A stretch of 64,000 bases of DNA from Vermamoeba vermiformis (taxonomy: Eukaryota). Position 1 is the first letter of the stretch. Each line of letters starts with the position of its first letter. The notes under the pieces were generated by a model that ran no database searches, was not told the DNA's origin, and saw only the letters and a program-made list of their open reading frames with translations. The position numbers and the translations under genes are program-made. Positions 10,933-53,414 of the stretch are shown here, one piece after another. The stretch spans positions 496,001 to 560,000 of the forward strand of contig JBEWZL010000300.1 of assembly GCA_045837725.1 (NCBI GenBank), written 5' to 3'.

Positions 10933-12946
10933 ATGCAGCACAATAATAACGATAATGACTTATTTGATGGTACGTAAAATTGTCATAAATATGAATATAT
11001 TTTATACGTGATCGTCTTGCTTATGTGCATTTGACGGCATCCGACAAAATTAAATTTTAAAGACGTTTTCAATTTTACCTAAATTTAATTTTTTCGGGAG
11101 TTAACCTATATTGACGGTTATATATAATATGCCTTTATTTTAGATGACGATGTTTTTGGAATGATTAACGAAGAGCGGATCAACGACTTCAAAAACCTCT
11201 CAGCTGATTACAAAAAGCTGTTGGAGGATGCTAAGTCGTCTGACATCACTATAGTGGTCAAATCTGCTGATCTTAGTAATGTCAAGCAATTCAAAGCTCA
11301 CAAATTAATATTGGCGGCTCGATCGAAGTACTTCGAGGCTTTGTTTTTCGGCAACTTCAAGGAGAGCTCTCAAAATGAGATTGAAATTACCGACGTCGAT
11401 CCTGCGGTCTTTGAACTCGTCTTGCAATGGATTTACACTGCTACGATAACCGTTAGCGAACAACACGTGAATGCGCTTATGGAACTCGCCGGACGCTTCG
11501 ATCTGCAAGACGTAAGTACTCCAATACCATCATAATATATTTAAGCACGTTGCTAATTCTTTTTCAGTTGTCCAAGCAATGCGAGTCGTTCACTGGCGAG
11601 GTGCTTTTGACGAACGAAAACGTCTTGGAATATTTGGGCAACTCGTTCAGCACCAATCCTCGCCTTAAAGAGAAGTGTCTGCAGTTCATTGAGATGAATA
11701 TTAGTGAATTGATGGCCTTCCCCGAATTTTTGGACTTGCCTGCGGAGGTCATGTCTGAGATCGTCAAGAGAAGCACATTAGCGACTAAGGACGAGCTCAA
11801 TGTCTATCATCTCATCATTGCTTGGAGGGACCACCATAAGGAACAGGTACTTAGTTATACCAGTCAATTACATACTAAAAATTTGAGCCGAAAAGTAGCG
11901 GATCTGGATCTAGTTCTTACTCACGAAATTTCTTAGAATATTATTCCATTGACTACAATCGAGTCCGATACCAAAGAACTCCTCAAGCACGTGAGATTGG
12001 CACTAATCCAACAGACCGATCTGGTCACTATTCTCAAGCCGAGTGGCTACTTTACCGTGGAGCAGATCTACGACGCGATCGCGTGCCAAATTGCCCCTCA
12101 ACTCTATCCAGACAATATTAACAGAGCTGCACGTCAACCGCCTATCAAGCCTGAACTGCGTTGTTTGATGCTGGGTTTGGATGCCTCTGGCAAAACTACC
12201 ATTTTGTACATGTTGAAGCTCGGCGAGGTTGTTACGACCATTCCTAGTACGTACTCTCTTACTTTTCTATATTAGGCTATTATTAATTATGCCAAATATC
12301 AAATTGAATTCAAAAGCAAAAAACTCTGAGCGAAATAATTATATAATAATAAGGCTTATTTTGTAGAAATATTATTTTTAGTTCCATTTTAGGAAATAAT
12401 TCTTAATTAATTGTTTCCGTAATAGCGATTGGTTTCAATGTGGAAACAATACCGTTGCAAAAGTCCGGCGTACAATTGACGATTTGGGACGTGGGCGCAC
12501 AACCCAAGATCAGACCATTATGGCGCCACTACACTAACGAGACTGATGTCCTTATTTGGGTCGTGGATGCGAACGACGGCGAGCGATTTGAAGAGTCCCA
12601 GATGGAATTGCACAAGTTGTTAGAAGACGAGGGACTGCGTGATACGGCGTTGTTGGTGTTGGCAAATAAGATGGACTTGCCAAATGCCGCGTCTGTTCAA
12701 ACTATTACGGCTGCATTGAATCTTAGCTCGTTGAGAAATCGTCAATGGTTCATCTGCGGTGGAAGTGGTACGATGAACGGTTGCTTCAGCGAAGGTAAGA
12801 CTAAACATGCATAAATACATATGTATTATTGCGAGGAATAAGAAGTTAGGCCGGATCTAATATTTTTTATTAAAGGCTTGGCTTGGATCCACACGGCGAT
12901 GCAAGAGAGAATGAAACAAAAGAAACGCGAATTGAGAAAGCGATAA
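10933..12946 (+). CDS. BTB/POZ-BACK-Arf small GTPase fusion protein
   Basis: BTB: SDITIVV...[19 protein letters not shown]...[28 protein letters not shown]...[11 protein letters not shown]...LLKHVRL. Arf: [52 protein letters not shown] and the Arf start share one exon (11949-12247). Stop TAA ends at 12946. Confidence 0.9.
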
Positions 12947-13199: not shown

Positions 13200-14927
13200 A
13201 TGCGGTTGAATCCGATTTGTTTGCTTTTAGTGGGCTTGATAAGCGCCATCATCGCAACGCCACCTGCCGGACCGTTTTGGATATCGCCAAGGACAGTTGC
13301 AAATAATACCGATGGAGGTAAGCCGTAATATATAATTGCATTATAGACAAAATAATATGTATGGTAGCTTTACCAGCAGATTTAAATTTCAAATTTTTAT
13401 GGATCGCTATCCATCAAGACTTTAAAATTCATTTTTGTACATTAATATAAATGCAATATTGAAAGTTTTTTTCATGCAGTTCCGGAGGAATTTGTCGCCG
13501 ATCGAGGCGTTTGGGCAAATCTGTCAACTGGTGCTGGGTCTAGAGCTGGCCTGCCGGTGGTACATATGGATTCAAAGGGCTATCTGTGGATTTACGGTGG
13601 CGTAGCTAGCTTTGACATGAATGCCATGTGGAATTACGATCTCGCTCGAGATCAATACAGATGGGTTGCGGGCATGGCAAATTTTGATGGACAATACAGT
13701 AACTTTGGCCAAATGGGCGTTCCTAGTAACGACACTTTCCCTGGCGGAAAAACTTACTCAGCTCATGCTATCGACAAAAACGATAATATCTGGATTTATG
13801 GCGGTCTTAGCGACAACACGCTGTGGATGTTCAATACGACCTCACTTCAGTTCACTTGGGTGGGTGGCAATAGCTCTAATGAGGTTGCTAAATATGGCGA
13901 GCTTGGTATGGCGTCAGAGGAGTACTGGCCTGGTCAGCTTGTAGGTGCGCGCATGGTCGTGGATTCGAAGAACAATCTTTGGTTGTTTGGGGGCTATATA
14001 GGACAGGTAGAGAGTAACGGCGTGTGGCACTATAACACGACATCGGGCATGTGGAGTCTTCAGTGGGGTGATCCAACAGCGACCCCTCCTTCATCAACCT
14101 TTCCAGATTATCAGAACAAGATCTGGCCTGGTCGATGGGGTCCTGGCTGTACAATCGACGAAGATGATCGTGTGTGGTTGTTTGGTGGCTCAGATAGCTC
14201 AACTGCATACCAGCTTTGGAATGATTTATGGTCGTTTGACACTAGAACTATCACGTGGCGAGTTGACCGAGATGCAGACGCATCAACGCTCTCTGGAAGC
14301 ATGTCATCATTTGATACGTATAGTATTTATAATTATCCTACTCAACGTGACGCAGCAAGTATGGTTGATAGACGTGACGGAACTTTCATAATGTACGGCG
14401 GAAGAAACAAATTTCAATACACCGTCTTTGATGATGTTTGGATATTCAATAAGACCAGCTCTTTATGGAAGTATGTTCATGGCAACGGTACTCAAGCAAG
14501 TCCCGTGTACGGCCAATATCGTGGTGCTGGTTCTAAGTTGGGCTCTCGACAAGCCTATGGTGCCGAGACAGGTCTAAGTGCCAAAGGTAACTTGATCATC
14601 TTTGGCGGCAATGACTTTGGAACCGTTACGTTCAACGACATCTGGATCATTCCGCAAGATCAGTGCGCGATGAATCTTCACGATTGTGATCCCAATGCAA
14701 CGTGTGCAACGACGTCATGGACTTATACATGTACGTGCAATGAAGGCTACGTCGGTGATGGTAAGACTTGCACTGTACCAGTACCTCAAGCCCCGACGAG
14801 CACTCAACCGATATCTAATCCGACTCCGACAAAACCCATTGCACCTACTGCCAAGACTTCCTCTGGATCTGAGGGCTTGATAGCATTTTCCTTTACTCTA
14901 TTCGTAGCTTTGATAGTGTTGTTATAA
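13200..14927 (+). CDS. Secreted, probably GPI-anchored Kelch beta-propeller protein with an EGF domain
   Basis: Exon 1 MRLNPICLLLVGLISAIIA is signal-like; one intron. Repeated W(I/L)(Y/F)GG...ND(L/I)W kelch motifs; EGF CAMNLHDCDPNATC...YTCTCNEGYVGDGKTC; P/T stalk; SSGS followed by a terminal hydrophobic tail. Confidence 0.85.
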
Positions 14928-22723: not shown

Positions 22724-25035
22724 ATGGCAGACGACAAGGATAAGGCCTGGATTGAAGTCCAAAAGAAAGCCTTCACTCACTGGGTTAACACTACCCTCGA
22801 GGCTCGCCACAAGTCAATTACCAACTCTATCGAAGTTGATTTGGCAGATGGAGTTCTTGTTATAGATTTTGTCGAGTTGCTGATTGGAAATACGATTAAG
22901 ACTAAGTGGACTAAGACCCCTTCAAACAGAATTAACAAAATCGAAAACTCTTCAATCGCTCTTCGTTTCCTCAAGGACAATGGCGTTGAAGAAAGGATGT
23001 TGACTATATCCGCTGAAGAACTCGTCGACGGCAACTTAAAATTGATCCTCGGCTTCTGCTGGATGTTATTCAGAAAATTCAGAATTATGAACATGAAGGG
23101 ATCCGAAGGAAGTAAGTTATTTTTTTCTTAAATTTTAAACTTTAAAAAAAAGATTTTTGCGGTTGCGGATGTCGCTTCCCCAAGGCCCGCGAATTCGCTT
23201 CGTAGAATCTTAATAACATAATTTAATACCGGATCTATTCCTATTGGCGTAATCTCCCGCAAGGATTTTTTTGGTGCGGACAACTTTTTTAGAAATTTCA
23301 ACTTAAATTGCTTCTTTTACGCTCTGAAATTGTTTAAATATTATTATAGAGCTTATAAATATATTACATATGATATAGACAAATAATGTGAGCTTTTTAG
23401 ACAAGATTTTTGGTAGATATTTTTTGCAAATTAAGTTGGAAATTTAGCTTTAAATGCGTTTAAATATCGATCCATACATATTCGTGGTATTGTTAATATA
23501 TTTTAAACAATTTTTGATAGTCTAATAAATTACAAAATAAGTTTTTGCTACATCCGGAAATACTTGCAAAGAATACCCGAACTGACTTTGACGGCCTTAT
23601 TAACCGTATTTAACTATTATAGGCAACTCAGCTGAAGACGCATTGCTCAACTGGGTTAGGACCGAAACTGAAGGCTACAAGGGTGTCAAGATCGAAAACT
23701 TTGGAACTAGTTTCAACGACGGCTTGGCGTTCTTGGCCTTGGTGCACAAATTTGATCCTAATCTCTTCGACTACGACAGCACTTACGGCGCGCAACCCTC
23801 GTTGAAGAACGCTGAACAGGCGATCGAGTATGCTGAAAAGCATTTGGGCGTTCCTAAGTTGATTGAAGCTAAGGAACTCGTTGACGGTAAGTTATATCGA
23901 TATTTGAATATTATAGAGCGCTTAAGCGACGAGTTTTTGAGTTTTCTTTTTGCAAACCGAATCTGAATCTGGTTTTTTCTGTCAATAGGCAAAGTCGACA
24001 CTAGAGCCATCGTTTTGTACACTTCATTGTTCTTGCACGCCTTCAGAGCTACTGAAGAGAAGCGCAAGCTCGCTGAAGCTGCTAATGCCTCCAAAACCAA
24101 AGTTACTGGCCTCGAATCTGAATTGCAAAGTGCTTTGTCTGAGAAAGAGAGCCTCGAAAAGAAGTTTAAGGACTTGACTGCCGACCACGACTCTCTCAAG
24201 GTCAAGCTTCAAGAGTCTGAAGAAAAGACTGGCAAGGTAAGAAAAAATTTTTTTTGGGGTCGAATCCGATCTTACTTTAAAACGTTTATTAAGCTTAAAT
24301 GAATTGAAAATACGATACTAATCATGTATATGTAGCTGCAAAGCGAGAAGGAAGAATTGGAGCGTGAAGCCGAAGAGCTCCGCATGAAGTTCAACAGATT
24401 CAAGCAAAAGTACGACGAGCGAGAGAAGACTGACCTTATGGGCTTGGATCTCTTGCTTAAGAACATCCCTGAACACATTATCAACGTTAACGAATTGCAA
24501 GGCTTCTTGGAACTCGAACGTAAGTTCGCGAAATTTTATTTTGAGCCACATCCGCTAAGAAAATCTTTTTTTTGTGTACTACAAATCAGCCTTTATCAAA
24601 ATAATATCTGTAACGATATTATAGCAATTTTGATCAACTTTAAGCGCATATAAGCTCAAATTACTAATTTTCTTTTTCGCAGCATCCAAATCCATTCCGA
24701 AATTTAGCTTCCCTGAAGATTGGAACGGTCGCTTAGAGCAACTTAATAAGGCCGTCGTCACTGAGAACTCAGACCTCGACAAGGCAGTTAAGAACGCTGA
24801 AGGTGGCAAAGCTGCTAAAGAAGCCGCTTTATTCAAGGGAGATCTGAAAGAAAAGAAGGCATCAGACGTAAAACTTGACCTATCGGTAACAAAGACTAGT
24901 CCTAGGGGTGATGAAACTAAACACACACCTAGATCCGAAGCTGAATCTAAAAAGACCCCTAGAGCAGCAGATGACAAGAAAACTCCCCGCGGCGACGATA
25001 AGAAAGCCACTACTCCTCGCGATAAGAAGAAATAA
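22724..25035 (+). CDS. Cortexillin-like actin-bundling protein (two CH domains, coiled coil, basic tail)
   Basis: WIEVQKKAFTHWVN...NLKLILGFCWMLF (CH1) and LLNWVR...SFNDGLAFLALVH (CH2). VLYTSLFLHAFRATEEK closely matches cortexillin LYTSLFFHAYRAKEEK; a coiled coil follows; stop TAA ends at 25035. Confidence 0.85.
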
Positions 25036-25753: not shown

Positions 25754-28700
25754 TTATTCAATAATCACGGTGGCTGTATCGGAGTCACCGAAATTGTCAA
25801 TTTTGTACATCTCTTCGACGTGACAGCTTGGCATCGTGTAGACTCCTATCGAACACATTATTAGTCGCTCAAATCATATCTAATATATCATAGTAGGGTC
25901 TTAAAATAGCAACATACCTTTACGAAGAGCGAGAGCCTTGTACGAGTATATATTTCGACCGTAAAAGTTGTCGGCAAACGCATCCACTCCATCAAGACGA
26001 ATATCAATGTGACTCCACGCACTTCAATAGTATGTATAGCGTTAGTATTGATTATAACTGGATGATTAGTGTTTTTACTAACCTTGATCCGGACCTATAA
26101 TAACGGTGTTCACTGCGCAATTTTTCAAGAGGCTGTTTTACGCGAATAGGTTAGCAATCGAATATAACAATACGAGTGTTATTAATATGATAGTACCTCG
26201 AGACCGGCAGCTACAGGGTCCTGAACAGCAAAGAACTTGGTGGTGTCGTAATGAATGTCCTGTACAATCACTTCAACTGCGACATGTGCGCCGTGTTTGA
26301 CACGATACACGGTGCGACCGTCTTTTTGTTCCACTTTGACGTCGTTTGGATTTTCAATGCCGTACAATCGTCGATCGATGGTGTATCTGTCCTTGAGTGG
26401 TTTCTCACCGACCTTTGAATCGAGCTTTAATTGCGCGCTGTACCACACTGGAGCACCGGTCTGTAGTACCAACACATTAGTTATTTGTCGCAAGCAATAG
26501 GTTCTGTTACGCACCAGCTGCAAAGTTAATTGCGGCAAAGACTTGATGTCGACAGACGGGTCGATGCGAGCTTTCAGTGAAGAGGTACCAGGGATCAACT
26601 CGCCAAGGTAACGCTTGCCGAGCCACACTTTGACCTTGTACTCGCCACCAATGTCTTTCTCGACCTTTTCGTAGTACTGCGCGAGTGCAATCAAGCTCCA
26701 CATGTTGGCGTTAGTGTGGTACCAGTGACCGTTCACTCGGTTGTTCAACAACTCGCCCGTAGTTCGAGTCAGCAAGTCAGCATCTGTATCAGACAGTAAG
26801 CGATGCTAATTCATTCATATTTGTTCGTACCTTTGAACGTGTCCTTGTTCTCGAGCAGGGCAAGAATGGTCAAACTGCACAACTTTGGAGTGTTGCACAG
26901 CATGGACCAGGTGCTGTCACCTTCCTCGGTGTCTGACAAAGCTGAAGAAATGGACTTTTGAACTTTCTTGGCCTATTCGATATATAGATCCTCGTAAGTC
27001 ACAGTCGAAAATTAATAGGATGGGCGAACGTACCAAAGTGTCAATGAGTTTGGTCTCAGGAATTGACGCAAAGAACGCGAGTGCCTGTGAATGTTAGTTG
27101 GGACCAGACTAACGTTAATTTAATGGCAGTTGACTTACCAAGACGCTTTTGGCTGATTTGCCCAGTGTTTTAATCTTTTCAACAAGCTCCTTGGTCAATC
27201 CATCCTTCATCAAGTGCAAAACGTACGCGGCGTATCCCACTTCAACGGTGTCTTTTTTGGCGTTCTCGACGATGTCCTTCACGTACTCTTTGCAGTTGTA
27301 CAAGAGAGCGCTTGACACTTCAAACCTCGCTACAAAGAATACCGTCAGCACGAAAAGAGGTGCCAGAATGAGATTGGATTCGTACCTGATTTTGCCAAGG
27401 CCAACGCATGGGCCACTTGAACATTGACGTATGAATAGTCGTTGTGGCCGCTGCTCCAATACGCGAACCTGCCGTTGCCCATATGACGCAAACTCAGCGC
27501 CCTCACGTAGTCCTTGATATTCGCGTTGATCTCGTGGGCCGATTTTTGATTGGGAGTGCGCACGAATGAGCCTAAGGTCAAGTACGGCAAGGCTACGAGC
27601 AATTGTGAAGACATTTGTTCGCTGCACAGGTGACGATAGTCGCCAAGGTACGTCAAGGCATCTGATCGAGATTTAAATTTCCATATTAGGAAATGTGAAA
27701 GATATGTTGTTGTACGTACCGACACCTTGAGACAAGATCGATGGTGAAATATTGATGTTGATTTCACCAGTGCCAAGAATGTGCTCGTTAATGCTGATCG
27801 TATGAGCACCTGTCTCGTTCTTTTTGTCAAATCTGCCGAAGACGCTTCTTCGCACGCTGAGCGATTTGACTCTGACTGGGAATTCAATTGCGTCACTACG
27901 CTCAACTTCACCACTCGCCCTGCCCACAGCAACGACCTGCAAAGATAAGTTAATGCTACGACACACTTAGACTAAGTCGTACTTGAATAGCGCCATCAAG
28001 GTACTCAGCAGCAGTCAAATCGAATTCGACTGAAGTGCTCGAATTAGCTTTTATCGTGCCGCTGAACCCGTGCGCACCAGTGACCGTCAATGACTTGGTT
28101 CTGGCAGCCACTTTGAAGTGAATGTCGTGTTCTTGTCTGTTGTAAAGTGTCACGGGGAACGATGTCTTGTCACCGATGCACAAGTGTCTGAGCACGAGCG
28201 TGCTGATCGAGAACGGCTTTGTCACATTGAACACGCTTTCTTGCTTCGAAGCAACTGTTGCTCCAATCGCGAGAGCGAAGATCTTGTAGCGCTTGAGCTC
28301 AGTCGGTGCCTCAAACTCAAAGCTCGTTGCCTTGCTGCCTTTAGTGACATTGACAGTCTTGAAAAAGGCAAGTGGTCCATTGCTCTTTCGCACGGTAATG
28401 GGCGTAGCTTCTTGTGTCGAAACAGAACCACCTCCACCGTCACCACGCAGTCTCAGAACAAGGTAGATTTTAGATCCAGGGAGCACGCCTTGGTCCTCCA
28501 ACGTCCTGCACGGCATTCGTAAGAAATAGTTGCCTCAGATTGGTTGTCAACAATTTCGTACCTGTCATCCATTAGCATCTTTCCAAAATAGATCAGACGT
28601 GCTTGGTCAGGTGGAATTCCGGATTGTTCTTCTAACGCTCTTTTTAGCTCCATCAACGTCATGTCTTTGTGCCAAGTAATGGGAACCTCTGAATAGAAGA

Positions 28701-31700
28701 GGTGAGTGTAATTCTTTGAATGAAGTCCTTGATCGGATACTCACGTCTGCCCGTCAAAGTTACGACATAAACTACTCGAGTTGCTGTCCAACCGCATTGT
28801 CGACTGGTGGATGGCACTGCACGGAGTATTATTAATAACACATTAACTCGAAGCCAAGAGTCGCAGTCTATTTTTTACCTGTGAGTGAAGTATGGGCCTT
28901 GTACTGCGTCTTTTTCTTGTTCAAGTATTCCATGGGGTGCTCCAGCTCATACTTGGCCAGCTTCAAAACAGCATCATCGACCGCCCAGACAGTCATTTTG
29001 ACGTCTTCGTTGAGTGGTTGATCAAACTCGCAAGTAACTTGGCTCTTCTCTGCAGGTCCCAGAAGCTTGTTGACGTTCACTGAAAACTTGACATCTCGAT
29101 CGGATCGAATATTCAAAGTGGTAGATCCAATGAGATTCAGGTGACTAAAAGAAGTTAGTGCATGTTCCGGTAGACTTTGGCTTACATTTCTTGCCCTTCA
29201 ACCGAAGCACCAAAGCCAATAATTGAGCAGTAGACTGAAGCTCTCGGGGCCAAGTTATTGTGAAGAGGAATATCGATGGAGAAGTCTCCATTGTCGTCCA
29301 AAGTTTTCGAGATCTTAAGCAATTCGTGTGCTTTGACGTACACATTACACAGTCCGCGTTTGAAATACGTTGGCAAGCCGGTAACTGTAACTTTGGCGAT
29401 CTCATTGGCAACGTACTCGTTCTTATCGAGAGTGACCACAACATTTGACTTCGGCGCCACGTCATTCGCAATACCGAACACTTCAGAGCGTGCTGATGTG
29501 ACGTCTAATAACCCAGTTAGTACTGTCGTTGCTTTGTAGCATGAGACTTACTTCCGTGACTATCGGAGACGTAGGCTTGAATGAAGTATTCTCCCGGTTG
29601 CAAAGCGACAGGAATAGATTCACCTCTGTGAACTTGCTTCACGAACTCCTTGACAACAGAAATCTTTTGGTGCACTTTGGACCAGACCTCAAAGTACACA
29701 TTGGCGCCGTCAACGATCGCATTGTTCTCGTCGATAACGATGGCTTCGAACGAAAAAGGAAACGCGGCGCTGAATACTTGGTCTCGCTTAATGTTAATAC
29801 CAACGGCAAGACCAACAGGGCGAAGATTGGCCACGTGATTTCCATTCAACCGCTCACCGTTCTTTAACTGAGTATCTGCCTTGTATTCAATCGACACGAG
29901 ACTGGTTGAGTTTTGGACATTGAACGATGATTTGATGCGCGATGAGCCTCCCAATTCAACGTTGATTTTCTAGCACTTGTTAGTGTCAAGTCAATCAATA
30001 GTATATATCAATGCTTACGGCCAATGGGTCGATGACAACAGAGGAGAAAGGCGCGGAGTAGAACAAAAATTCGGGGTACTCGGGTAAGGACATGGCATCG
30101 CTACGAAAGTGTTAAAGAGTGAAATTGTTATAAATAAATATTACCTCTTAACAACGAAGCTTCCAGTGGTTGTAGCGCCAGTTACATCATCGCCGATGAA
30201 GGATTTGACCTCCGTATCGATATTCACCGTCTTGCTGGAAATATCTTGAGAAGATGACACAAGCACCTATTATCCCATGTTAGAGCCGTAGTAAAAATGA
30301 TATGACCAGTGAAAAAAACTTACTTCGTTATCGGGAACTCTGAACTCCTTGATCGGGAACTTAATCTGATGACAAACTTCGTCGTCGTACAAGAAACTGA
30401 CTTCGCCACTAATACAAACGCAAGGGTTAATTCACCACGCATCAACTCCGGTGCTACTTACACTCCAGGGTAAGCCGAAGTAGGGACTTGAACCTCGAAG
30501 TCGAAGCTTGGCGAACTTGAAAAAAAGGTTAAAAATGAAACTTATATCGACACCTTAGCTTACCTTTTTGCATCAACAGCACCCTTTGATATTTCAGAAC
30601 CATGTCCGTCTTTCACTACGTATCTCAAGTTATGGCCGAGATAACCTCCCTCTGCAGTGCGAGCGAATCCAATGATGTGAGCCTTCTCGCCAGGTTGGTA
30701 TAATCCGCGGTCAGTAGTAGCGTACAGGTCAATTTTCTGCGCATTTCCTCCAGCTACTACCTCGGGAACGTTGAACACGGCCCAATCACCATTAGCCACG
30801 ACTTTAAAACTCGTCACTAGCTGCTGTTAGTACAAACTAATGGTGCGTGTGATAGTGTCTTACCATTAGCTGGGATAATTGGCTTATCTTTGACGGAAAC
30901 GAACTCGCCCTTCTCATTGGCGTACACGATTGTTGGGTTGCTAATAGGCTTCAAATCTTTAGTGTAAGCAGTGCTGAAACAAATAAACAGTTAGATGATA
31001 CGTAAAAATAACAAGTCGTAGTAAAACTAACTTACATTTCGATGCCGTTTTCGTGCGCAAAAGTGTCAACGATCCAATCTGTCTTTTGTACAAAAAATGT
31101 TGCTTGATTTGGAATAGTAATCGCTAACAGCCTAAAAACTCAACTTAGTATTCGTATCAAAATTTAATTTAACGTTTGTTACGCACTTTTGCTCGGGCGA
31201 GAAATACCGTTCCAAATCGATAGTGAAGATTTGCATCTCGTGATTCAGGTCAGGCAGCACAATGTCACCGCCACCAACACTAGCACCCACTTGCGGCACT
31301 AAGTGCTGATCAAACGAGGCGTTGCAAATCGAGTACTCGTACTTCAACGAGGCAGCAATCATTTGCAATGAGGGTGTAGCGACGTTAGTGATCTTTGCGT
31401 TGCCAGTAGGCATGCATAATATTCCTCGAAATTTCTTGTACTTGCGAGTATAATCGCTGCCGAGGATTGTTCCGTCAGCGCTCATCAAAGAACTCTTGAA
31501 AGTCACTTCAAACTCCATTTCCTTTTGTGGGACCTTAACGCAGATCTGATCACCTTGTACGATAATATCTTCAACGTCAGTAGTCACGCGGATATAATCC
31601 TTGATGGTCGCAACGCATTCGGGGTGAATTGGGGTGGAGAATTGAAAACACGGGTTTGTGTTGATCGGGATGTGGAACCATTGCAAAGGTCGAATAGTGA

Positions 31701-33169
31701 ACGTGGAAGTAATCTATAATATCCTGATTAGAACGATCTATATCGAAACAGAAAAGTAGTCTTACGGAAGTGCTCCGCTTGATGCCTTTTGATGGCAAGG
31801 GTCCTTCGTCGGAGTGACTTCCGGAGTCCAAGATGAACGTCAGTTCTGGACTGCTGAGCGGCCATTTCTCAGGCTGTAAGAACAACACGCTCACTCCGCT
31901 TTCTTTAGCTTTTTCATACGCAGCGATGATTGACGGAGTTTTGTACAGGGTTTTGATGTCTTCAGTTGGAGTGTATGGCTTCATCGCGACATCTACACAA
32001 TAAATCGGAATCTTGCTCTTAATTCGCTGGTTGAATATAACCATGACAACGGGACTCATCGTGGTCTCAATATGCCTGTTAAGCAAAGTCTTAGCTCGGG
32101 TCGGATGTGACGCCTCTCAAGATCTTTTCGAGACTTACACGGAGTCAATATTCACGACTGCAGTCGAAAAAGTGAATTCTTTTTTCGGTTGTTCTTTTGT
32201 TCCATCTTCAAGGACGATTGAACCCAGGGACAGCTTGAACTCGGTAGATCCAGGGAATCGATTGGCACTGTAGATCACTCGGGTTGGACTCACCCATATC
32301 CACTATCATGTAATATTATTGTTAATACGAAGGAGTAGTTAATGTTTTGACGCTACCTTTCCTTCGGGCAGTTCCGGTTTGGATTTGACATGGAAGTCCA
32401 TTTGTTGGACGGGCTGATTAAACTCAAAAGCCAGAAATTGTTTTCCAGCTCCATAGTCTAAGAATGAGTCGTATATTCGCAGAGGCTTTTGAGACTTTTG
32501 CACTTTGCCCTTTGAACTCTTGCCGGATTCGCTCCGCAAAATATTTTCTACCGTAGGAAGCGGTGCTGCATCATTAGAAATCTTAGATTGCGCGCCTTCC
32601 ATTTGAGGTAATCGGTTGAGCAGCGCTGTACATTCTTCAGAACTCAATTCTTCATGCTAGTCAACGTCTTAGTCGTGGATCGAAAAAAATTGGTTTCGAA
32701 TTAATACCAGCACTTACCTTTGTAGTAGCGTCTAAATCTTGTCCTACTGATTCGTGTTTTACGCTCAAAATAGCACCGTTACGGCAAACAAGGTCACCAC
32801 TGACACCGATCGAGTTTAATTTTAGATATTTTGAAGTTGAGTTGCTCAAAAATATTACTTACGCTTGAAGAGAGTAGACACTTGCGCGGTAATACTAAAG
32901 ATACGCAAAGATTAATTCCGTTAAAAGGATCCACAAGAAAAAAATAAATTATTGAAATTTAATTTTACCTTAAACGTCATTGATGCGTATGCTGATATAT
33001 CGATTTTGTCGATAAGGTCTTGGTTAAGCAAAAATATATCGTCAGTTTTGAAGACCTCACGAAGCTTCTGCTGAATCCGATCGCATGTTGGGCTGGAATT
33101 CAGAGTAACAGTCTTCGGCTCGGAGAGTCCCGATGCAGTGATCTCCTGCACTGATATATTAGTGGTCAT
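25754..33169 (-). CDS. Bacterial-type alpha-2-macroglobulin (thioester protein) with a ubiquitin-like domain in the bait region; multi-exon
   Basis: YATTDRGLYQPGEKAHIIGFAR (MG2-type); MTVWAVDDAVLKL...HPMEYL (pre-bait); VRKSNGPLAFF...APTELKRYKIFALA...KPFSISTLVLRHLCIGDKTSFPVTLYN (post-bait MG); YLGDYRHLCSEQMSS (thioester, CSEQ at 27615-27626); GNGRFAYW; WYHTNANMWSLIAL; C-terminal VQDPVAAGLE...YSYKALALRKGVYTMP...EEMY...FG. Junctions around the bait and thioester exons were checked in frame. Confidence 0.9.
28439..28778 (-). other. Ubiquitin-like domain (76 aa, 3 exons) embedded in the alpha-2-macroglobulin
   Basis: Removing introns 28689-28744 and 28506-28561 gives RVVYVVTLTGRQVPITWHKDMTLMELKRALEEQSGIPPDQARLIYFGKMLMDDRTLEDQGVLPGSKIYLVLRLRGD, which aligns without gaps to ubiquitin (32/76 identical by hand count). 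Confidence 0.93.
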
Positions 33170-34543: not shown

Positions 34544-36030
<1,487 letters not shown>

Positions 36031-41098: not shown

Positions 41099-44000
41099 AT
41101 GCAAAAGGTACGTGCTATTGCATTGATGCAATTCTTTGACTACGGTTATTAACCGATGATTCATTTCTTTAGCTAGCCATTTTATTATTCTTGGGTTTGA
41201 TTTCCCTTAATTGTTTTGCCTTGGCCCGCACATCCGACACCTCGGGTAAGCAATTATATAAATTCTAACATACGTCATCCCATTTACTCATATTAACGTC
41301 ATTTGTCATCCAAAGAACCAATCCCAGACGTGCCTCAAAGCGTTCCGATCGCGGAACCAGTTGATCCTTCTACTCTCCCGACCAATGAACCCGTAGCCCC
41401 TCAAGGCAATACCCCTGACCAATCTCCTGTGCCCGATACAACAACGGGTGGCGAGACAACCGTTCCGGTTAGTGAATCTCCAACGAGTATCCCATCCGAT
41501 CAACCTACCGGCGTTCCTGTTAGCGAGACCGGTGGCGATTCAACTATTCCTCAGGGCGAGGCTACTCCTGTGGTTGATTCAACTGCACCAACTAGCCAAG
41601 AGACTATCCCTCAAGGCGACGCTGCTCCTGTTGCAGACTCGACTGCTCCTCTTGCCGACTCAACTGTGCCCACTGGTGTAGAGACTGGTACTCCTCAGGG
41701 CGAAGCTACAACCCCGAGTGACCCGGTACCAACTGGTGACGGGTCAACCACTCCTCAGGAGGCTTCATCGCCGGTCGCATCTACTACCCCGGAGACTTCC
41801 GCTCCTACTGGTGGTGAGTCAAGCACTCCTCAAGGCGACGCTGCCCCTCTTGCCGACTCAACTGTACCCACTGGTGACACGACCACTCCTCAGGGTGAAA
41901 CTACAACCCCGACCGTAGAAACTACTCCTCAAAGCGACGCTGCTCCTGTTGCTGACTCAACTGTACCTACTGGTGGCGAGACCGCTCCTCAGGGTGATGC
42001 CACACCTCTTGCTGATACCCCTCAAGGCGATGCTGCTCCTGTTGCAGACTCGACTGCACCTACTGGTAACGAAGGTACACCAACTGGTGACACGACTACA
42101 CCTCAGAGCGAAACTACTCCTGTTGCAGACACAACTGCACCAACTGGTACTGAGACCACTCCTCAAGGTGATGCTTCTCCTGTTGCAGACTCAACTGCAC
42201 CTACCGGTGATGAGGCTCCTCAAGGCACCACTGCACCTCTTGCAGACTCAACTGCTCCAACTAGTGACACAACCACTCCTCAGGGCGAAGCTACTCCTGT
42301 TACAGACTCTACTGCTCCAACTGGTGATGCTGCTCCTCTTGTGGACACAACTGCACCAACTGGTGGCGAGACTACCCCTCAAGGTGATGCTACTCCTGTT
42401 GCAGACTCGACTGCACCTACTGGTGATACGACCACACCTCAGAGCGAAACTGCTCCTGTTGCTGACACAACTGCACCAACTGGTGGCGAGACTGCTCCTC
42501 AAGGTGATGCCACACCTCTTGCTGATACCCCTCAAGGCGACGCTGCTCCTGTTGCCGACTCGACTGTACTGGTAATGAGGCTACTCCTCAAAGCGACGCT
42601 GCACCTCTTGCAGACTCAACTGCCCCAACCAGTGATGAGGCCACTCCTCAGGGTGAAACTGCTCCTGTTGCTGACTCGACTGCACCTACTGGTGATGCAA
42701 CCACACCTCAGAGTGAAATTACTCCTGTTGCTGACACAACTGCACCAACTGGTGACGAGACTACTCCTCAAGGTGACGCTGCTCCTGTTGCAGACTCAAC
42801 TGCACCAACTAGTGGCGAGACCACTCCTCAGGGCGAAGCTACTCCTGTTACAGACTCTATTGCTCCTACCGGTGATGCTGCTCCTGTTGCTGACACAACT
42901 GCACCAACTGGTGGCGAGACTACTCCTCAAGGTGATGCCACACCTCTTGCTGATACCCCTCAAGGTGACGCTGCTCCTCTTGCCGACTCAACTGCACCCA
43001 CTGGTGACAATACCACTCCTCAGGGTGAAGCTACTCCTCAAAGTGATGTTGCCCCTCTTGCTGACTCGACTGCTCCCACTGGTGGCGAGACTACTCCTCA
43101 AGGTGATGCACCTCTTGCTGACTCAACTGCTCCTCAAAGCGACGCTGCACCTCTTGCAGACACTGCTCCTGCTGGTGATTCCTCTCCTCAAAGCGAGGCC
43201 CCAACTGGTGACACTACAACTCCTGTTGGCGATGAAACCAATTCCCCTGTTGACTCTAGCACTCCTGTTGGCGACTCCACTCCTGTTGGTGATAGCAATC
43301 CTCCTCTTGTGGAGAACACTCCTCTCGCTGACGATAACTCTACTGCTCCACTTGGAGACAGTTCTCCCGTTGGTGACAATTCTCCTGTCGATAGTGCTCC
43401 AGTTGGTGATAACAACCCACCAGTTGACACTCCTCTTGCTGAGAATGATAATGCTACTGTTCCTGTTGGTGAAAGCGCCCCTATTGCCGACAGTGCTCCA
43501 GTCGGAACACCCTTCTTGAGTGATGAAACCAACCCTCCTGTCGATGCACCTTTAGCTGATGATACCAACACCACTGCTCCTGTTGGTGACAACAACCCAC
43601 CAGTTGATGCACCTTTGGCCGACGATACCAACTCCACCGCTCCAGTTGGCAATGAAACCAACCCTCCTGTTGATGCTCCTCTCACTGATGACACCAACAC
43701 CACTGCTCCCATTGGTGACAATGCTCCAGTCGATGCTCCTCTTGCTGATAATAATCCCTACCCCATTGTTCTTTTTGTCCCGCCGGACAATGCTACTGCT
43801 CCAGTTGGCGACAGCAATCCTCCAGTTGATGCACCTTTGGCTGATGACACCAACACCACCGCTCCCATTGGCGACAATACTCCTTCAGTTGATGCACCTC
43901 TTGCTGGCGATGACAACAGCACTACACCTATTGGTGATACCAACCCTCCAGTTGAGGCACCTCTTGCTGATAACGATAACAGTACTGCTCCTTTGGCTGA

Positions 44001-46689
44001 CTCCACTCCAGTTGATGCACCTTTGGCCGAAGACACGAACACTACAACCCCAGTTGGTGACAGCAACCCACCAGTGGATGCTCCTTTGGCTGAAGATAAC
44101 AATGCCACTACACCAATTAGTGATAGCAATCCTCCAGTTGATGCACCTTTAGCTGATGATACCAACACCACCGCTCCTGTTGGTGACAATACTCCTTCAG
44201 TTGATGCACCTCTTGCTGATAATGATAACACTACTGCTCCTATTGGCGACTCAACACCTGTTGATGCACCTCTGGCCAACAACGACAACAGCACTGCTCC
44301 AGTTGGTGACAACAATCCACCAGTGGAAGCTCCTCTTGCTGATACGACAAACACCACCGCTCCCCTTGGAGATGATAGTAATCCTCCTGTTCAAGAGCCG
44401 ATTGCTGAGCCTGTCACTGAGCCAGTTGCAGCTCCCGTTGACGTTCCTGTGTCCACTCCAGTTGATGTACAAACCCCTGTTGATGTTCCAGTTGCTGCAC
44501 CAGTTGAAGTACAGCCTCCTGTTGAAGAGCCAGTCGCCGCACCTGTCTTTGTAGAGGTGCCTGTTAGTGCTCCTGTTGATGCCCCAGTTGATGTTCCCAT
44601 CAGCACTCCAGTCGATGCCCCAGTTGATGCTCCAGTTGATGCCCCAGTTGATGTTCCTGTTGCAACTCCTGTTGACACACCAGTTAATGTTCCTGTCAGC
44701 ACACCAGTCAACGCCCCTGTTGACGTTCCTGTCAGCACACCGGTTGATGCCCCTGTTGACGCTCCAGTGGCAGCTCCTGTCAGCACACCAGTCGATGCCC
44801 CTGTTGATGTTCCTGTTGCAACTCCTGTTGACATCCCCGTGTCAGTTCCTCTCTCTGCCCCTGTTGACACTCCAGTTGACGCTCCTGTTGAAGTTCCTGT
44901 CAGCACTCCAGTTGATACCCCTGTTGATGTTCCTGTTGCAGTTCCTGTCAGCACACCAGTCGATGCCCCTGTTGATGTTCCTGTTGCAACTCCTGTTGAC
45001 ATCCCCGTGTCAGTCCCTGTCTCTGCCCCAGTTACTACTCCAGTTGATGCACCAGTTGATGTTCCTGTTGCAGTTCCTGTCAGCACACCCGTTGCTACCC
45101 CTGTTGATGTTCCTGTTTCGACACCTGTAGATACCCCTGTGTCAGTCCCTGTTGCTGCACCGGTTGACGCTCCAGTCGCTGCACCTGTCTTTGTAGAGGT
45201 GCCTGTTAGTGCTCCTGTTGATACACCAGTTGATGTTCCTGTCAGCACTCCTGTCACTACCCCTGTCGCTGTTCCTGTCTCAGTCCCTGTCAGCACTCCT
45301 GTTGCAGTCCCTGTTGCATCACCTGTGGCCACTCCTGTCGCAGCCCCAGTCAAGGCTCCCACTGCTGCTCCCATCGCAGCTCCTGTCGCCGCTCCAGTCA
45401 AGGCACCAGTCTCTGCTCCTGTTACTGCCCCGACACCTGTTGCTGCCACTCCTGTCTTCGTTCCTCCAGCTCCTCAGTGTGGCAACAACATTGTTGAAAA
45501 TGGTGAACAATGTGATGGTGGCTCAGGATGTGGTGCCAACTGCCAATGTGTCGGCACAGCTCTTCCCACCATGCCATTCAGTCGTGACTGTATCGTCAGT
45601 GCTTGTGGCAACAACAAACTTGACTTTGGTGAGCAATGCGATGGTGGACAGAACTGCACAAGCAACTGCAATTGCGCAGCAGGCTCTGTTCCAACAGTTC
45701 CTCCTTCACCTGCTTGCACTTTGTGCGGCAACGGCAGAGTCGACTCTGGCGAAGATTGCGATGGTGGCAACTTCTGTGTGTCGTGCAAGTGTGCTTCTGG
45801 CTTCCAATCATCTGCTGACGGGTCATGCACACCAATCATTCCTCCCAAGAACGCTCAGGTCGTTCCCATTCTTGAGTGCTTCAAGCCTGCATCGAACGGT
45901 TTCTTCACTGCATTCGTTGGATGGAACAACCTTGACGGCAAGACTCAAACCATTGCTAAAAGTGACATGAACTTCTTCACGCCTGTCACTCCTAACGGTG
46001 GTGACATCACTGAATTCGCCAATGGCCTTCACATCGGCTATCCTTCATCACCCATCGTATTGACGTGGTCAGCAGACACCACAGTGCTCACTTGGAAGTT
46101 GTCTGACTTTGCTCTCGTCATTGACACCACCAACACTGCTGCCCAGTGCCCTGGAGATGTCACGCTCAAGATCTCGCTCTCTGTCGCAACGAACGGAAGT
46201 GCCACTTTGTCTCCTCAACAGCAAGTTGACTTGACATTGAAGTTCGCTGAACTCCTTGGCGTGTCTCCAGCTCGTTTGACTGTCATCATTGACCAAGTTG
46301 TGAGCACCAAGCGAAGCTCTACCTCGTCTTTGTCATTCTTGGTTAAGATCGCTCCTCCTACTAACGACAGCACACCACAACAATCCACCGCTGATGCCGT
46401 GAGCTCATTCCTCACTCGTCTCGACACTGGCGACTCGTTCTTGAAGGACGCTGTTGAAGCGACTGTTCCTACTCTTAGCGTTCAATCAGCTTCGGCCACA
46501 CCTCAACCCTTGCCCACCATTCAAACAGCCAAGACTGGCGTTACTGTGCCTGTTCCTCCTTCAGTCGCCACACCAACAAAGGAACCTATCGAAGCAGGCT
46601 CACGACCTCCTCGTGATTCGGTTTCAAGCTCATCGGTGCTTACTCCTTTGAGCGCGATTACAATTTTTGCTTTGTATATTCTTTTCTAA
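41099..46689 (+). CDS. Very large mucin-like surface glycoprotein with Cys-rich (CGNG..E.GEQCD) repeats and a GPI-type tail; frameshift near 42570
   Basis: MQK|LAIFIILGLISLNCFALA signal peptide; P/T/D-rich repeat stalk of about 1400 aa; three CGN..(V/L)(E/D).GE.CDGG repeats; globular VVPILEC...TAFVGWNN domain; SSSS plus hydrophobic end. Repeat sense moves from frame 2 to frame 1 near 42570, so this may be a pseudogene or an assembly error. Confidence 0.8.
41480..45460 (+). repeat. Successive coding tandem-repeat blocks (TPQGDAAPVADSTAPTG; PPVDAPLADDTNTTAPVGD; PVxx tetrapeptides)
   Basis: Directly visible degenerate repeats; the middle block is dense in NxT/S sequons; the last block has a 12-nt period. 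Confidence 0.9.
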
Positions 46690-50150: not shown

Positions 50151-53100
50151 ATGCAACTCAAAACTGTAAGTAACGCCCAGTGATTTGTTTAATACTAATA
50201 CTTACTCGTCAAATCACTCATAGTCTTTTACTCGTTAATATTCATCCGCTCGTTGTCATCCAGTTACTAACGAAAGCTTTGCAGTTTTGCTTTGTGGTGC
50301 TCTTGGGCATTCTTGCCTTAACTTCCATCGCTTCAGCACAACCTGTAGCTGGTAAGTAGTAAATCAGCGTTGGGAGGCAGAATATTCAATAGAGTTTTGA
50401 TTCATCCAATTCGTCGATCTGATCTAATTCGCCTTTTTCGGACAGATCCGCCCGTGGTCGACAATACTCCTCAAGCCGATAATACCACGATAATCGACCC
50501 CACACCTCAGGTTGACACTACTCCTCAAGCTGATGCCCCGCAAGCCGATACCACACCTCAGGCCGACACAACGCCACAAGTCGATAACACTCCTCAAGTC
50601 GACACTACGCCACAAGTCGACACTACGCCACAAGCTGATACCACACCGCAGGCCGACACAACACCACAAGTCGATAACACTCCTCAAGCTGACACTACGC
50701 CACAAGCAGACAATACTCCTCAAGGCGACGCCGCTCCTCAGGTCGACACTACTCCTCAAGCCGACAACTCACCGCAAGTTGATAACTCGCCCCAAGTAGA
50801 CACTACCCCACAAGCAGATAATACTCCTCAAAGCGACAACGCTCCTCAGGTTGACACTACTCCTCAATCTGATGCCCCTCAAGGCGATAGCACACCTCAG
50901 GCCGACACAACGCCACAAGCCGACAGTACTCCTCAGGTCGACACTACTCCTCAAGCTGATGCCCCTCAAGGTGACAGCGCGCCTCAGGCTGATTCGCCAC
51001 AAGCCGACAATACTCCTCAAGTTGACGCACCTCAAGCCGACAACTCACCCCAGGTAGATAACACTCCTCAAAGCGACAACGCTCCTCAGGTTGACACTAC
51101 TCCTCAATCCGACACCCCCCAAGGTGATAGCGCACCTCAAACCGTCGATACCCCGCAGGCCGATACCACTCCTCAATCTGACACGCCTCAAGCTGATAAC
51201 ACACCGCAAGTCGATAACTCGCCTCAAGCCGATGCTCCTCAAAGCGACAACTCACCACAAGTTGATAACACACCTCAAGCTGATACCACGCCTCAAGGTG
51301 TCGATACCCCTCAAGCGAACTCACCTCAGGCCGACAATACCCCTCAAGTAGACAACTCGCCCCAAGTCGACAATACTCCTCAAAGCAGCGCTCCTCAAGC
51401 TGATGCTCCTCAAGGTGTCGATACTCCTCAAGCCGATAATACCCCTCAAGTCGATTCGCCTCAAGCTGACGCTCCTCAAGCCGATACCACCCCTCAAAGC
51501 ACCCCTCAAGGTGATAATGCTCCTCAAGACAACGCTCCGCAGGTCGACAACTCGCCTCAAGTCGATAACACTCCTCAAAGCACCCCTCAAAGCGACAACG
51601 CTCCTCAAGTAGACACCCCTCAAGGCGATAATGCGCCGCAGGTTGACAACTCGCCTCAAGTTGATGCTCCTCAAAGCACCAACACTCCTCAGGCTGATAA
51701 CACCCCTCAAAGCGACAACTCACCGCAAGTTGACACACCTCAGGCCCAATCACCTCAAGGAGATAATGCTCCTCAAGTCGATGCTCCTTTAGCGAACGAC
51801 AATAACGCCACCACTCCTGTCGGCGACTCTACTCCTCCTGTCGATGCTCCTCTCGCGGACAATGATAACAGCACCGTGCCTGTTGGCGATAATACTCCCG
51901 TCGGCGTTGACACACCTGTCGATGCTCCTCTTGCGGACAACGATAATAGTACCGTGCCGGTCGGTGACAATACTCCTGTCAGCGTTGATACTCCCGTCGA
52001 TGCACCGATCTTCGTCGATGTGCCAATCGCTTCGCCTGTCGTTTCTACTCCGCCCACTGCTCCTGTCGCAGCCCCAGTCAAGGCTCCCACTGCTGCTCCC
52101 ATCGCAGCTCCTGTTGCCGCTCCAGTCAAGGGACCAGTCTCTGCTCCTGTTACTGCCCCGACACCTGTTGCTGCCACTCCTGTCTTCGTTCCTCCAGCTC
52201 CTCAGTGTGGCAACGGTCTTGTCGAGCAAGGTGAACAATGTGACGGCGGCGCTAATTGCACCAACTGCCAATGTATTAATGGCGCTCTTCCCACCATGCC
52301 ATTCAGTCGTGGCTGCCTTGTCCGTGCTTGCGGCAACGGCAACCTTGACTTTGGTGAGCAATGCGATGGTGGACAAAACTGCACAAGCAACTGCAATTGC
52401 GCAGCAGGCTCTGTTCCAACAGTTCCTCCTTCCGCTGCTTGCACTTTGTGCGGCAACGGCAGAGTCGACTCTGGTGAAGATTGTGATGGTGGCAACTTCT
52501 GTGTGTCGTGCAAGTGTGCTTCTGGCTTCCAATCATCTGCTGACGGATCATGCACACCAATCATTCCTCCCAAGAATGCTCAAGTCGTTCCCATTCTTGA
52601 GTGCTTCAAGCCAGCATCGAACGGTTTCTTCACTGCATTCGTTGGATGGAACAACCTTGACGGCAAGAATCAAACCATTCCTAAGGGCGAGCTCAACTTT
52701 TTCACGCCTGTCACCCCCACCACGACCAGCGACGTTACCGTCTTCGCTCCTGACCTTCACATCGGCTATCCTTCGTCGCCCATCATATTGACGTGGTCAG
52801 CAGACACCACAGTGCTCACATGGAAGTTGTCTGACTTTGCTCTCGTCATTGACACCACCAACGCTGCTGCCAAGTGCCCTGGAGATGTCACGCTCAAGAT
52901 CTCGCTTCAAGTTGAAGGTAGCTCTGCCACTTTGACTCCTCAACAACAAATCGACTTGACGTTGAAGTTCGCTGAACTCCTTGGCGTGTCTCCTGCTCGT
53001 TTGACTGTCATCGTCGACCTCGTGGTCGCTACTAAGCGCGCGACCAGCTCAAACCTGTCGTTCTTGGTGACTGTGGCACCTCCTGTTGCCAACACAACTG

Positions 53101-53414
53101 TGGCGCAGCAATCTACCGCTGATGCCGTGAGCTCATTCCTCACCCGTCTCGACACTGACAACTCGTTCTTGAAGACCGCTGTCAAGGATACCGTTAATTT
53201 GACCGTGCAATCGGCTTCAGTCACACCTCAACCCTTGCCCACCATTCAAACAGCCAAGACTGGCGTTACTGTGCCTGTTCCTCCCTCAGTCGCCACACCG
53301 ACGAATGTACCTGTCGAAGCAGGCTCACGACCTCCTCGTGATTCAGTTTCAAGCTCGTCAGTGCTTGTTCCATTGAGCTCAATTGCTCTTTTTGTTTTAT
53401 ACTCTCTTTTTTGA
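50151..53414 (+). CDS. Paralogous mucin-like surface glycoprotein with Cys-rich repeats and a GPI-type tail
   Basis: MQLKT|FCFVVLLGILALTSIASA signal peptide; two 5' introns as in the paralogue; (A/V)D(T/N)TPQ repeats; the C-terminal ~450 aa are highly similar to 45330-46689. Confidence 0.88.
50455..51785 (+). repeat. Coding 15-18-nt tandem repeat, xD(T/N)(T/S/A)PQ
   Basis: Dozens of degenerate cctcaag(c/t)(c/t)ga(c/t)a(a/c) units in a single reading frame. Confidence 0.9.

Follow-up and report, generated by a model that had tools for sequence, protein, structure and literature searches.

In a 64,000-nucleotide stretch of DNA from the amoeba Vermamoeba vermiformis (GenBank assembly GCA_045837725.1, contig JBEWZL010000300.1, positions 496,001 to 560,000), hereafter referred to as the window, a gene was analyzed that encodes an alpha-2-macroglobulin (A2M) carrying a ubiquitin-like domain (Ubl) at the place of the bait. 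The gene spans positions 33169 to 25754 on the minus strand, with its ATG at 33169 and the end of its stop codon at 25754. It was modeled with 30 exons and 29 GT..AG introns of 41–74 nt and encodes a protein of approximately 1932 amino acids (aa). The fusion of Ubl and A2M was confirmed: it is real, spliced, conserved and ancient, and is expressed in a close relative. All positions given below refer to the window, and all features of this gene are located on its minus strand.

Gene structure and splicing

The gene model was obtained by homology. P0002, the 1920-aa protein of a close relative, was aligned to the window and the best-fitting GT..AG junctions were chosen; models with the fewest introns followed wrong paths and were replaced by these homology-guided junctions. 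Three elements were set by hand, namely a 32-nt micro-exon close to the 5' end, a 50-nt exon towards the 3' end and an in-frame intron of 54 nt. Exon 1 (32969–33169) encodes the first 67 aa of an N-terminal domain of approximately 100 aa. It is followed by the micro-exon, exon 2 (32863–32894), which encodes YYRASVYSLQ(A), was placed via homology to YFRGSVHHTE of P0002 and lies outside the X5 joints listed below. The in-frame intron (26461–26514) would add 18 aa if retained and matches an 18-aa gap relative to P0002. Gene callers that are naive or built for prokaryotes would misinterpret the micro-exon as well as this intron. Identity between the deduced protein and P0002 amounts to 61% (1190 of 1956 alignment columns).

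Splicing was evaluated by means of contigs from run X5, which carry the label 'RNA?' and are approximately 95% identical to the window. Among the joints listed (15 of 22), 15 stretches of the window are missing from these contigs, 13 of which coincide exactly with modeled introns and two approximately. For the in-frame intron, the X5 joint runs from 26461 to 26518, with two letters between. All 13 exact joints show CT..AC ends on the plus strand, corresponding to GT..AG on the gene strand, and contigs devoid of GT..AG introns must originate from spliced RNA. Both introns located within the Ubl belong to these 13 joints. The spliced X5 contigs remove them exactly and keep the Ubl. The 62-nt intron upstream of the Ubl (28878–28817) is absent among the X5 joints listed and was placed by homology to P0002 only.

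Furthermore, the cluster of P0002 comprises three members of 1920 aa on contigs of 8–10 kb as well as pieces of 184 aa and 286 aa on contigs of approximately 0.5 Mb. At the intron positions of the window, the short pieces continue into or across intron sequence, which indicates that these pieces are genomic and that the long forms are spliced. Exon skipping could not remove the Ubl, because exon 19 has a length of 127 nt and the exon of an MG domain encodes the final third of the Ubl. The fusion was kept in the X5 contigs, in P0002 and in the dictyostelid relatives.

A2M scaffold and the ubiquitin-like domain in the bait segment

Pfam analysis of P0002 revealed MG2 (residues 640–716), A2M_BRD (966–1113), ubiquitin, A2M (1254–1340) and bMG10 (1780–1905), in this order; the Pfam domain TED (PF07678) was undetected in P0002 at E<=0.01. 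A profile built from P0002 and 28 relatives matched Escherichia coli ECAM/YfhM (4ziq) with an E-value of 2.5e-191 over profile positions 296–1894 and Salmonella A2M with an E-value of 3.1e-184, nearly over the full length in both cases. Moreover, a Foldseek search with the P0002 model returned native ECAM (E 1.6e-49). The TMq values amounted to 0.53 for native ECAM, 0.52 for Salmonella A2M and 0.33 for elastase-activated ECAM (4rtd), the model being closer to the native than to the activated form. As judged from these profile and model comparisons, the window protein is a bacterial type I (ECAM/YfhM-type) A2M featuring the canonical domain order.

The thioester motif CSEQ, described as intact in the earlier note, is encoded by TGC AGC GAA CAA at 27615–27626 within the thioester domain, approximately 240 residues away from the Ubl tail in sequence. 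In a 31-row alignment, conservation of its Cys, Glu and Gln reaches 90% or more, and C[ST]EQ was kept in the window protein, in P0002 and in all five full-length dictyostelid members. The C-terminal MG domain contains EEMY (25805–25816), representing the EXMY motif. In bacterial A2Ms, this motif touches the thioester domain and later the cut bait, as described in PMC4498604.

At the N-terminus of the protein (MTTNISVQEITASGLSEPK), no hydrophobic leader, signal peptide or lipobox was recognized by eye, and the same applies to P0002. The absence of a signal peptide and lipobox suggests an intracellular location, and the window protein is probably cytosolic. The N-terminal domain of approximately 100 aa is extra relative to bacterial A2Ms. 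AlphaFold predicted a beta-beta-alpha-beta start for this domain (pLDDT 78); no Pfam match and no Foldseek match at E<=0.001 were obtained for it.

The bait region lies downstream of the pre-bait motif WAVDDAVLKLAKYELEHPMEYL (WAVDDAVLKL...HPMEYL; 28922–28987), which forms the end of the A2M_BRD region and aligns with the bacterial pattern VVDEAVLxLxxYxxPDPxxxFY. Linker 1 (28779–28921), consisting of the 27 aa NKKKTQYKAHTSLTVPSTSRQCGWTAT, is broken by the 62-nt intron at 28878–28817. The subsequent Ubl (Pfam PF00240) comprises 76 aa from the CGA codon at 28778 to the GAC codon at 28439 and ends with LVLRLRGD. Its span of 340 nt corresponds to 76 codons plus two introns of 56 nt each, at 28744–28689 (GTGAGT..TTCAG) and 28561–28506 (GTACGA..TGCAG). 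The Ubl is carried by exons 18 (28816–28745), 19 (28688–28562) and 20 (28505–27983), the last of which combines Ubl residues 54–76 with the linker and the MG domain that follows, without interruption. Linker 2 (28400–28438; GGGGSVSTQEATP) is composed of a Gly run and a short flexible stretch and leads to the post-bait motif ITVRKSNGPLAFF (28361–28399). The latter represents the start of the A2M PF00207 domain and aligns with the bacterial pattern PIxxRxxFxxLAxF. Reading of the minus strand therefore agrees with what the earlier note had reported, namely a Ubl in frame between the pre-bait and post-bait motifs at 28439–28778 that is interrupted by two GT..AG introns of 56 nt and has an exon (exon 20) in common with the downstream A2M. 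Identity to ubiquitin, claimed as 32 of 76 positions, was counted by hand as 32 of 73 (ubiquitin residues 3–75), which is consistent with the claim.

Assignment of both partners of the fusion was also possible for individual exons. The 41-aa middle Ubl exon alone matches the Pfam ubiquitin family PF00240 with an E-value of 1.8e-7 (31.3 bits, cut-off 25.4), and exon 20 alone matches PF00207 (A2M) with an E-value of 1.9e-7. In the orthologue P0002, ubiquitin was detected between A2M_BRD and A2M with an E-value of 3.8e-14 (profile positions 1–72), and ubiquitin chains ranked first in a PDB search. The AlphaFold model, calculated for P0002 residues 741–1920 from a 40-row alignment, reached a mean pLDDT of 78.7 and a pTM of 0.64. 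Within this model, the Ubl is folded as a beta-grasp (beta-beta-alpha-beta...beta; pLDDT 79–94), and both flanks show pLDDT values below 50 (P0002 1126–1151, i.e., model residues 386–411, and P0002 1227–1240, i.e., model residues 487–500).

Pre-bait and post-bait motifs enclose a variable segment, which measures 42–114 aa in 28 bacterial homologues and is occupied by the Ubl in the amoebal protein. Many of these homologues show a Gly run at the position aligned with linker 2 (by eye, uncounted). In ECAM, the bait includes a 20-residue stretch (Arg923–Leu942) without electron density in the elastase-cleaved structure (PMC4498604). In the amoebal proteins, the two linkers of the interval are predicted to be disordered, yet the folded Ubl makes up most of the stretch. 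According to the alignment and the model, the Ubl thus replaces part of the variable, normally disordered A2M bait segment and would be tethered by two flexible linkers.

Relatives, origin and genomic surroundings

The nearest eukaryotic relatives of the window protein are found in social amoebae (dictyostelids). They surfaced exclusively in an exhaustive phmmer scan of a library of 1.84 billion representatives with exon 20 of the window as query, which yielded 166 matches, of which the best 150 were listed. Among the matches listed, seven begin at query residues 1–3 and hence include the Ubl tail, and in all six of these that were subjected to Pfam analysis, ubiquitin is located directly upstream of A2M. 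The protein P0200 (4507 aa; matched query residues 3–50) was set aside, since its surroundings look like a repeat-rich protein of another kind. Within the same scan, nothing was recorded below an E-value of 1e-30 although P0002 is 79% identical to exon 20; the P0002 cluster is apparently unrepresented in this library.

Full-length members with a Ubl in the bait were obtained for Dictyostelium purpureum (XP_003285776/F0ZED6), Heterostelium album (D3B0G9), Acytostelium subglobosum (XP_012760015), Polysphondylium violaceum (KAF2070237) and Synstelium polycarpum (EukProt entry). In all five, the Ubl resides just upstream of A2M (PF00207), followed by bMG10, and A2M_BRD was detected in two of them. 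Where these entries bear a descriptive name, it goes no further than hypothetical protein or ubiquitin domain-containing protein. The environmental fragment P0144 originated from the same scan. Furthermore, the dictyostelid proteins P0086, P0091 and P0096 possess a Pfam Rad60-SLD/ubiquitin match at the N-terminus (approximately residues 1–130), containing a long low-complexity loop and no GG tail. An N-terminal Ubl is established for the dictyostelid relatives only, because the corresponding domain of the window protein gave neither a Pfam nor a Foldseek match.

With the C-terminal 1021 residues of P0002 (900–1920) as query, 60 matches were obtained; the other 59 are A2M-family proteins of 20–27% identity, none of these 59 contains PF00240, and those with names are bacterial. 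A word-indexed search with the Ubl junction (P0002 1125–1265) retrieved P0002 alone among 992 candidates. Scans of metagenome contigs for the locus of a relative with P0002 and P0063 as queries resulted in 18 and 205 pattern matches, respectively, of which none was confirmed. Look-alikes from the ESM Atlas were discarded as ordinary A2M clusters with scores of at most 0.87.

A tree was calculated from the C-terminal 740 residues of 39 sequences (seven Ubl-bait proteins and 32 bacterial ones picked from approximately 200; 711 columns) by a quick LG+G4 search, in which the Ubl columns were dropped by the fill filter and warnings for compositional bias and some long branches were issued. This tree groups all seven full-length Ubl-bait proteins in a single clade (SH-aLRT 95) within a bacterial A2M clade (99), and the named bacterial relatives include Bradymonadaceae, Minicystis and Marinimicrobium. 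The topology fits one bacterial transfer and one Ubl insertion before the split of the window lineage and the dictyostelids. The gene would accordingly have been taken over from bacteria by a common ancestor of the window lineage and the dictyostelids.

Domains other than the Ubl were also observed in the bait position of related proteins. P0034 (2147 aa) harbors a PT-HINT/intein domain at residues 1328–1444 and P0154 (2223 aa) a CarboxypepD_reg domain at residues 1318–1373, each between A2M_BRD and A2M, and both proteins show matches to bacterial Ig-like Big_5 domains. These two cases suggest that the bait loop is an insertion hotspot. They also favor an explanation that treats the Ubl as a tolerated insert contributing no function and the protein, if functional, as a general cytosolic protease trap or scaffold. 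This explanation was considered very unlikely, since the Ubl is in frame and folded, its key residues were kept across the whole clade (window lineage and five dictyostelid genera), and exon skipping cannot remove it.

P0144 is a 503-aa environmental fragment encoded on a 2.7 kb contig. Its ubiquitin, located at the bait position, is identical to the ubiquitin row at 68 of 73 positions (counted by hand) and has the tail RLRGG-GD. Residues 116–435 of P0144 contain a Hint/intein-like PT-HINT domain (E 6.2e-16), immediately followed by the near-canonical ubiquitin and then by A2M. By analogy, a self-cleaving module combined with ubiquitin at the bait position would recall complement C3, which is processed in two steps.

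The neighbors of the gene in the window are all ordinary eukaryotic genes. They include a two-CH-domain actin-binding protein (22724–24299, plus strand), an Arf-family GTPase (12407–12811, plus strand), a kelch/EGF protein (13446–14924, plus strand), a protein kinase (34623–35228, minus strand), a RhoGAP and a histidine phosphatase. No ubiquitin- or protease-linked gene was found among the examined neighbors in the window. In addition, very long open frames are present on the plus strand at 41297–46686 and 50349–53411, with Thr/Pro/Ala-rich pieces of 740, 1387 and 1021 aa, a GC content of 50–53% and a strongly negative GC skew in both regions. Near-identical antisense frames at 45477–45854 and 52205–52579 point to a duplicated segment common to the two regions. 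By composition, the long frames look like mucin-like repeat proteins.

Candidate triggers and comparison with known systems

Residues of the Ubl were numbered according to the ubiquitin row of the PDB-search alignment, and the family was compared in an alignment of eight sequences. L8, R42, K48, V70, R72, L73 and G75 were kept in all eight Ubls, and position 44 is occupied by I or F across the family. The window Ubl possesses the complete L8/I44/V70 patch as well as R42, R72 and L73. These recognition residues were held despite an identity of only 58% between the orthologue Ubls and a far greater divergence of the dictyostelid sequences (the latter by eye).

Based on the sequence data, the protein is tentatively proposed to be a protease-triggered thioester protein whose trigger enzyme would be recruited by the Ubl. 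This interpretation is favored because the parts of an ECAM-type trap are all present, the Ubl is located at the trigger place, and residues of the ubiquitin tail were kept across deep divergence. Ubl domains serving for docking only, such as those of the Rad23 and parkin type, do not usually keep an RLxG tail. The Ubl would represent the docking site for an enzyme reading the L8/I44/V70 patch and the R72–L73 tail, and the docked enzyme would cut at or beside the Ubl tail. As in ECAM, the cut would free the post-bait segment and release the thioester domain from the C-terminal MG domain, so that the Cys-Gln thioester would be exposed and would form a covalent bond with whichever nucleophile is closest, most probably the enzyme at the docking site. 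For ECAM itself, cleavage was described to untether the bait, which then separates the thioester domain from the C-terminal MG domain and thereby activates the thioester (PMC4498604). Candidate triggers are a pathogen deubiquitinase, in which case the protein would act as a decoy trap, or a dedicated host protease, which would resemble activation by a C3 convertase.

Several observations weigh against this interpretation, some of them specifically against a deubiquitinase as trigger. Residue 76 is Asp in the window protein, in P0002 and in X5 (RLRGD instead of RLRGG), X5 featuring the synonymous exchange GAC>GAT at 28439. The tail of the window protein and P0002 reads RLRGD-GGGG, and both therefore lack the C-terminal Gly-Gly at positions 75–76; G76 was kept in the other six of the eight aligned Ubls. 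Linear ubiquitin fusions mutated at residue 76 generally resist deubiquitinases. Given Asp76, triggering of the window protein by an ordinary deubiquitinase is unlikely. Moreover, the GG of the other members may stem from the A2M instead of having been kept as a cleavage site, since a Gly run is already present in many bacterial baits. With an identity to ubiquitin of only 30–43%, the Ubl would be a poor mimic, which speaks against the narrower version of a deubiquitinase trap; a private Ubl with its own protease fits this modest identity better. In the comparison of the window protein with P0002, an identity of 58% was determined for both the Ubl (45/78) and the thioester domain, 80% for the next MG domain and 61% for the entire protein; linker 1 matches at 15/27 positions. 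Ubl and linker 1 thus change no faster than the protein as a whole, and a coarse sign of an arms race was not observed. In addition, the RDDR motif is altered to RLDG in the window protein (26008–25973) and to RRDG in P0002. Three RNA-seq runs with the same species label contributed 9, 2 and 2 reads for the gene, most of which are partial, and are uninformative either way.

Some of these features are accommodated by the main alternative explanation, according to which the Ubl remains uncut and serves as a tag for docking or clearance (recognized, for instance, by the proteasome, p97 or autophagy receptors) or as a K48 acceptor in the manner of an uncleavable fusion, the linkers being the true bait. 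Any cytosolic endopeptidase would then cut the linkers, and after capture the Ubl, in dictyostelids together with the N-terminal Ubl, would route the complex to destruction. Such a process would be the cytosolic counterpart of the receptor-mediated clearance of A2M–protease complexes. The explanation draws on Asp76, which leaves the tail uncleavable by ordinary deubiquitinases in the window lineage, on K48 being kept in all eight Ubls, on the second, non-GG Ubl at the dictyostelid N-terminus, and on the predicted disorder of both linkers, of which linker 1 is Lys/Arg-rich. Conservation of R72, L73 and G75 in all eight sequences, which is unusual for docking-only Ubls, argues against it, and the tag function was regarded as possible but doubtful.

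As a special case of the favored protease-triggered mechanism, the Ubl could mimic the ubiquitin of the host and be cut by deubiquitinases or other ubiquitin-attacking proteases injected by bacteria or viruses, which would thereby become covalently trapped. The kept recognition residues are in agreement with such a decoy, as is the near-canonical ubiquitin of P0144 with its RLRGG tail (68/73) at the same place. Ras-like GTPases represent another class of proteins often attacked by effectors. In this respect, a Dictyostelium paralogue with a Ras-like GTPase domain between two A2M blocks is of relevance (PMC2430557), although the placement of the cpRAS insert in the bait is deduced from published coordinates. 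The low identity to ubiquitin, Asp76 in the window lineage and the lack of accelerated change in the Ubl render the decoy unlikely.

This decoy corresponds to the proposal of the earlier note, namely a bacterial protease trap that was re-baited with a ubiquitin mimic to capture or sense deubiquitinases and Ubl proteases. Its structural part stands, as the protein is a bacterial-type A2M with a Ubl in the bait segment and is likely intracellular; capture of deubiquitinases is opposed by Asp76, the identity of 30–43% and the absence of faster change. A function as trap for deubiquitinases, as judged from the sequence, is plausible but unproven. In a broader version, amoebae would own an intracellular complement-like thioester family of bacterial origin, the bait loop of which provides a slot for host proteins attacked by pathogens (ubiquitin, or a Ras-like GTPase in the Dictyostelium protein DdiCPRas2), and the cutting effector protease would be captured or would mark the site. 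This generalization is speculative and was likewise rated unlikely. If true, it would represent a natural ubiquitin activity-based probe and would extend integrated-decoy immunity beyond plants and animals.

A2Ms and complement proteins are known as protective proteins that are secreted or located in the periplasm and carry either a disordered bait or an anaphylatoxin domain. A cytosolic A2M with a ubiquitin-fold trigger loop, if true, would join thioester immunity and ubiquitin signaling and would suggest a way to retarget a broad protease trap to a single enzyme class. If the trigger is a host protease, the system would be a cytosolic analogue of C3 activation; if it is a foreign deubiquitinase, it would constitute an innate immune sensor of a new type and could serve as a model for building deubiquitinase traps from proteins. 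Since the family reaches Dictyostelium-like, easily manipulated amoebae, the idea is directly testable.

Regarding novelty, full-text literature searches combining A2M, thioester proteins or COG2373 with ubiquitin, Dictyostelium or amoebae revealed no description of a ubiquitin fold in an A2M bait among the papers listed. A term search for ubiquitin, amoeb and Dictyostelium in the accessible text of a 2026 review of A2M evolution (PMC12939704) gave no hit. A preprint on the CAGE complex (10.1101/2025.09.22.677704) was set aside, as its accessible part deals with a different protein of a new fold with single A2M-like domains only and mentions neither a thioester nor ubiquitin. The earlier assertion that the architecture is undescribed accordingly holds for the papers found, but not for databases: Ubl-in-bait sequences of five dictyostelids are already public, some as 'ubiquitin domain-containing' proteins.

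Comparison with characterized systems places the window protein close in structure to E. coli ECAM (YfhM) and Salmonella Sa-A2M (4ziq, 5a42, 4rtd, 4u48), with which it has in common the domain order, the native-like fold, CxEQ, EXMY and a bait in the same MG domain. In contrast to these proteins, it is devoid of a lipoprotein signal and hence probably not periplasmic, possesses an extra N-terminal domain of approximately 100 aa, contains a folded Ubl in place of part of the disordered bait, shows RLDG instead of RDDR and is encoded by an intron-rich eukaryotic gene. The dictyostelid Ubl-bait proteins resemble it in the order Ubl–A2M–bMG10, in C[ST]EQ and in belonging to the same clade. They differ in being only approximately 30% identical in the region compared, in their tail (IRL[SY]GG-G[DS] versus LRLRGD-GGGG), in their length of 2177–2272 aa and in a clear second Ubl at the N-terminus.

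Deubiquitinases recognize the ubiquitin body and the peptide bond at residue 76, and an adjacent reactive group captures the enzyme covalently, as exploited in activity probes. Compared to such probes, linear ubiquitin fusions and Ub(G76V) fusions, the reactive group of the window protein would be a thioester approximately 240 residues away, and residue 76 is Asp.

Another amoebal protein derived from the same bacterial COG2373/A2M stock is DdiCPRas2. In the only related paper found, Elias and Novotny (2008) described it with a circularly permuted Ras GTPase (residues 2844–3013) between two A2M blocks, proposed a bacterial transfer and reported a second COG2373-like Dictyostelium protein without the GTPase; ubiquitin is unmentioned in the accessible text (PMC2430557). 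DdiCPRas2 likewise features an inserted foreign eukaryotic signaling domain. It differs from the window protein in the nature of this insert, which is a GTPase and not a Ubl, and in approximately 2100 extra N-terminal residues. As inferred from the published coordinates, the GTPase may also sit in the bait, because the 775 residues following the second block match the 677–744 residues following the post-bait motif in P0002 and P0086.

Complement proteins carry a small folded anaphylatoxin (ANA) domain instead of the bait, and release of this domain exposes the thioester (PMC9156758). The likeness to C3, C4 and C5 concerns this domain of approximately 77 aa in the bait's place and a specific protease cutting beside it, as given in the same text. 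The insert of the window protein is a beta-grasp and not a four-helix anaphylatoxin, a furin site is absent, the protein ends with the bMG10/C-terminal MG domain without an additional C-terminal domain, and its location is inferred to be cytosolic and not secreted. Complement C3 is the closest known parallel to the Ubl-bait A2M, the likeness being one of logic only.

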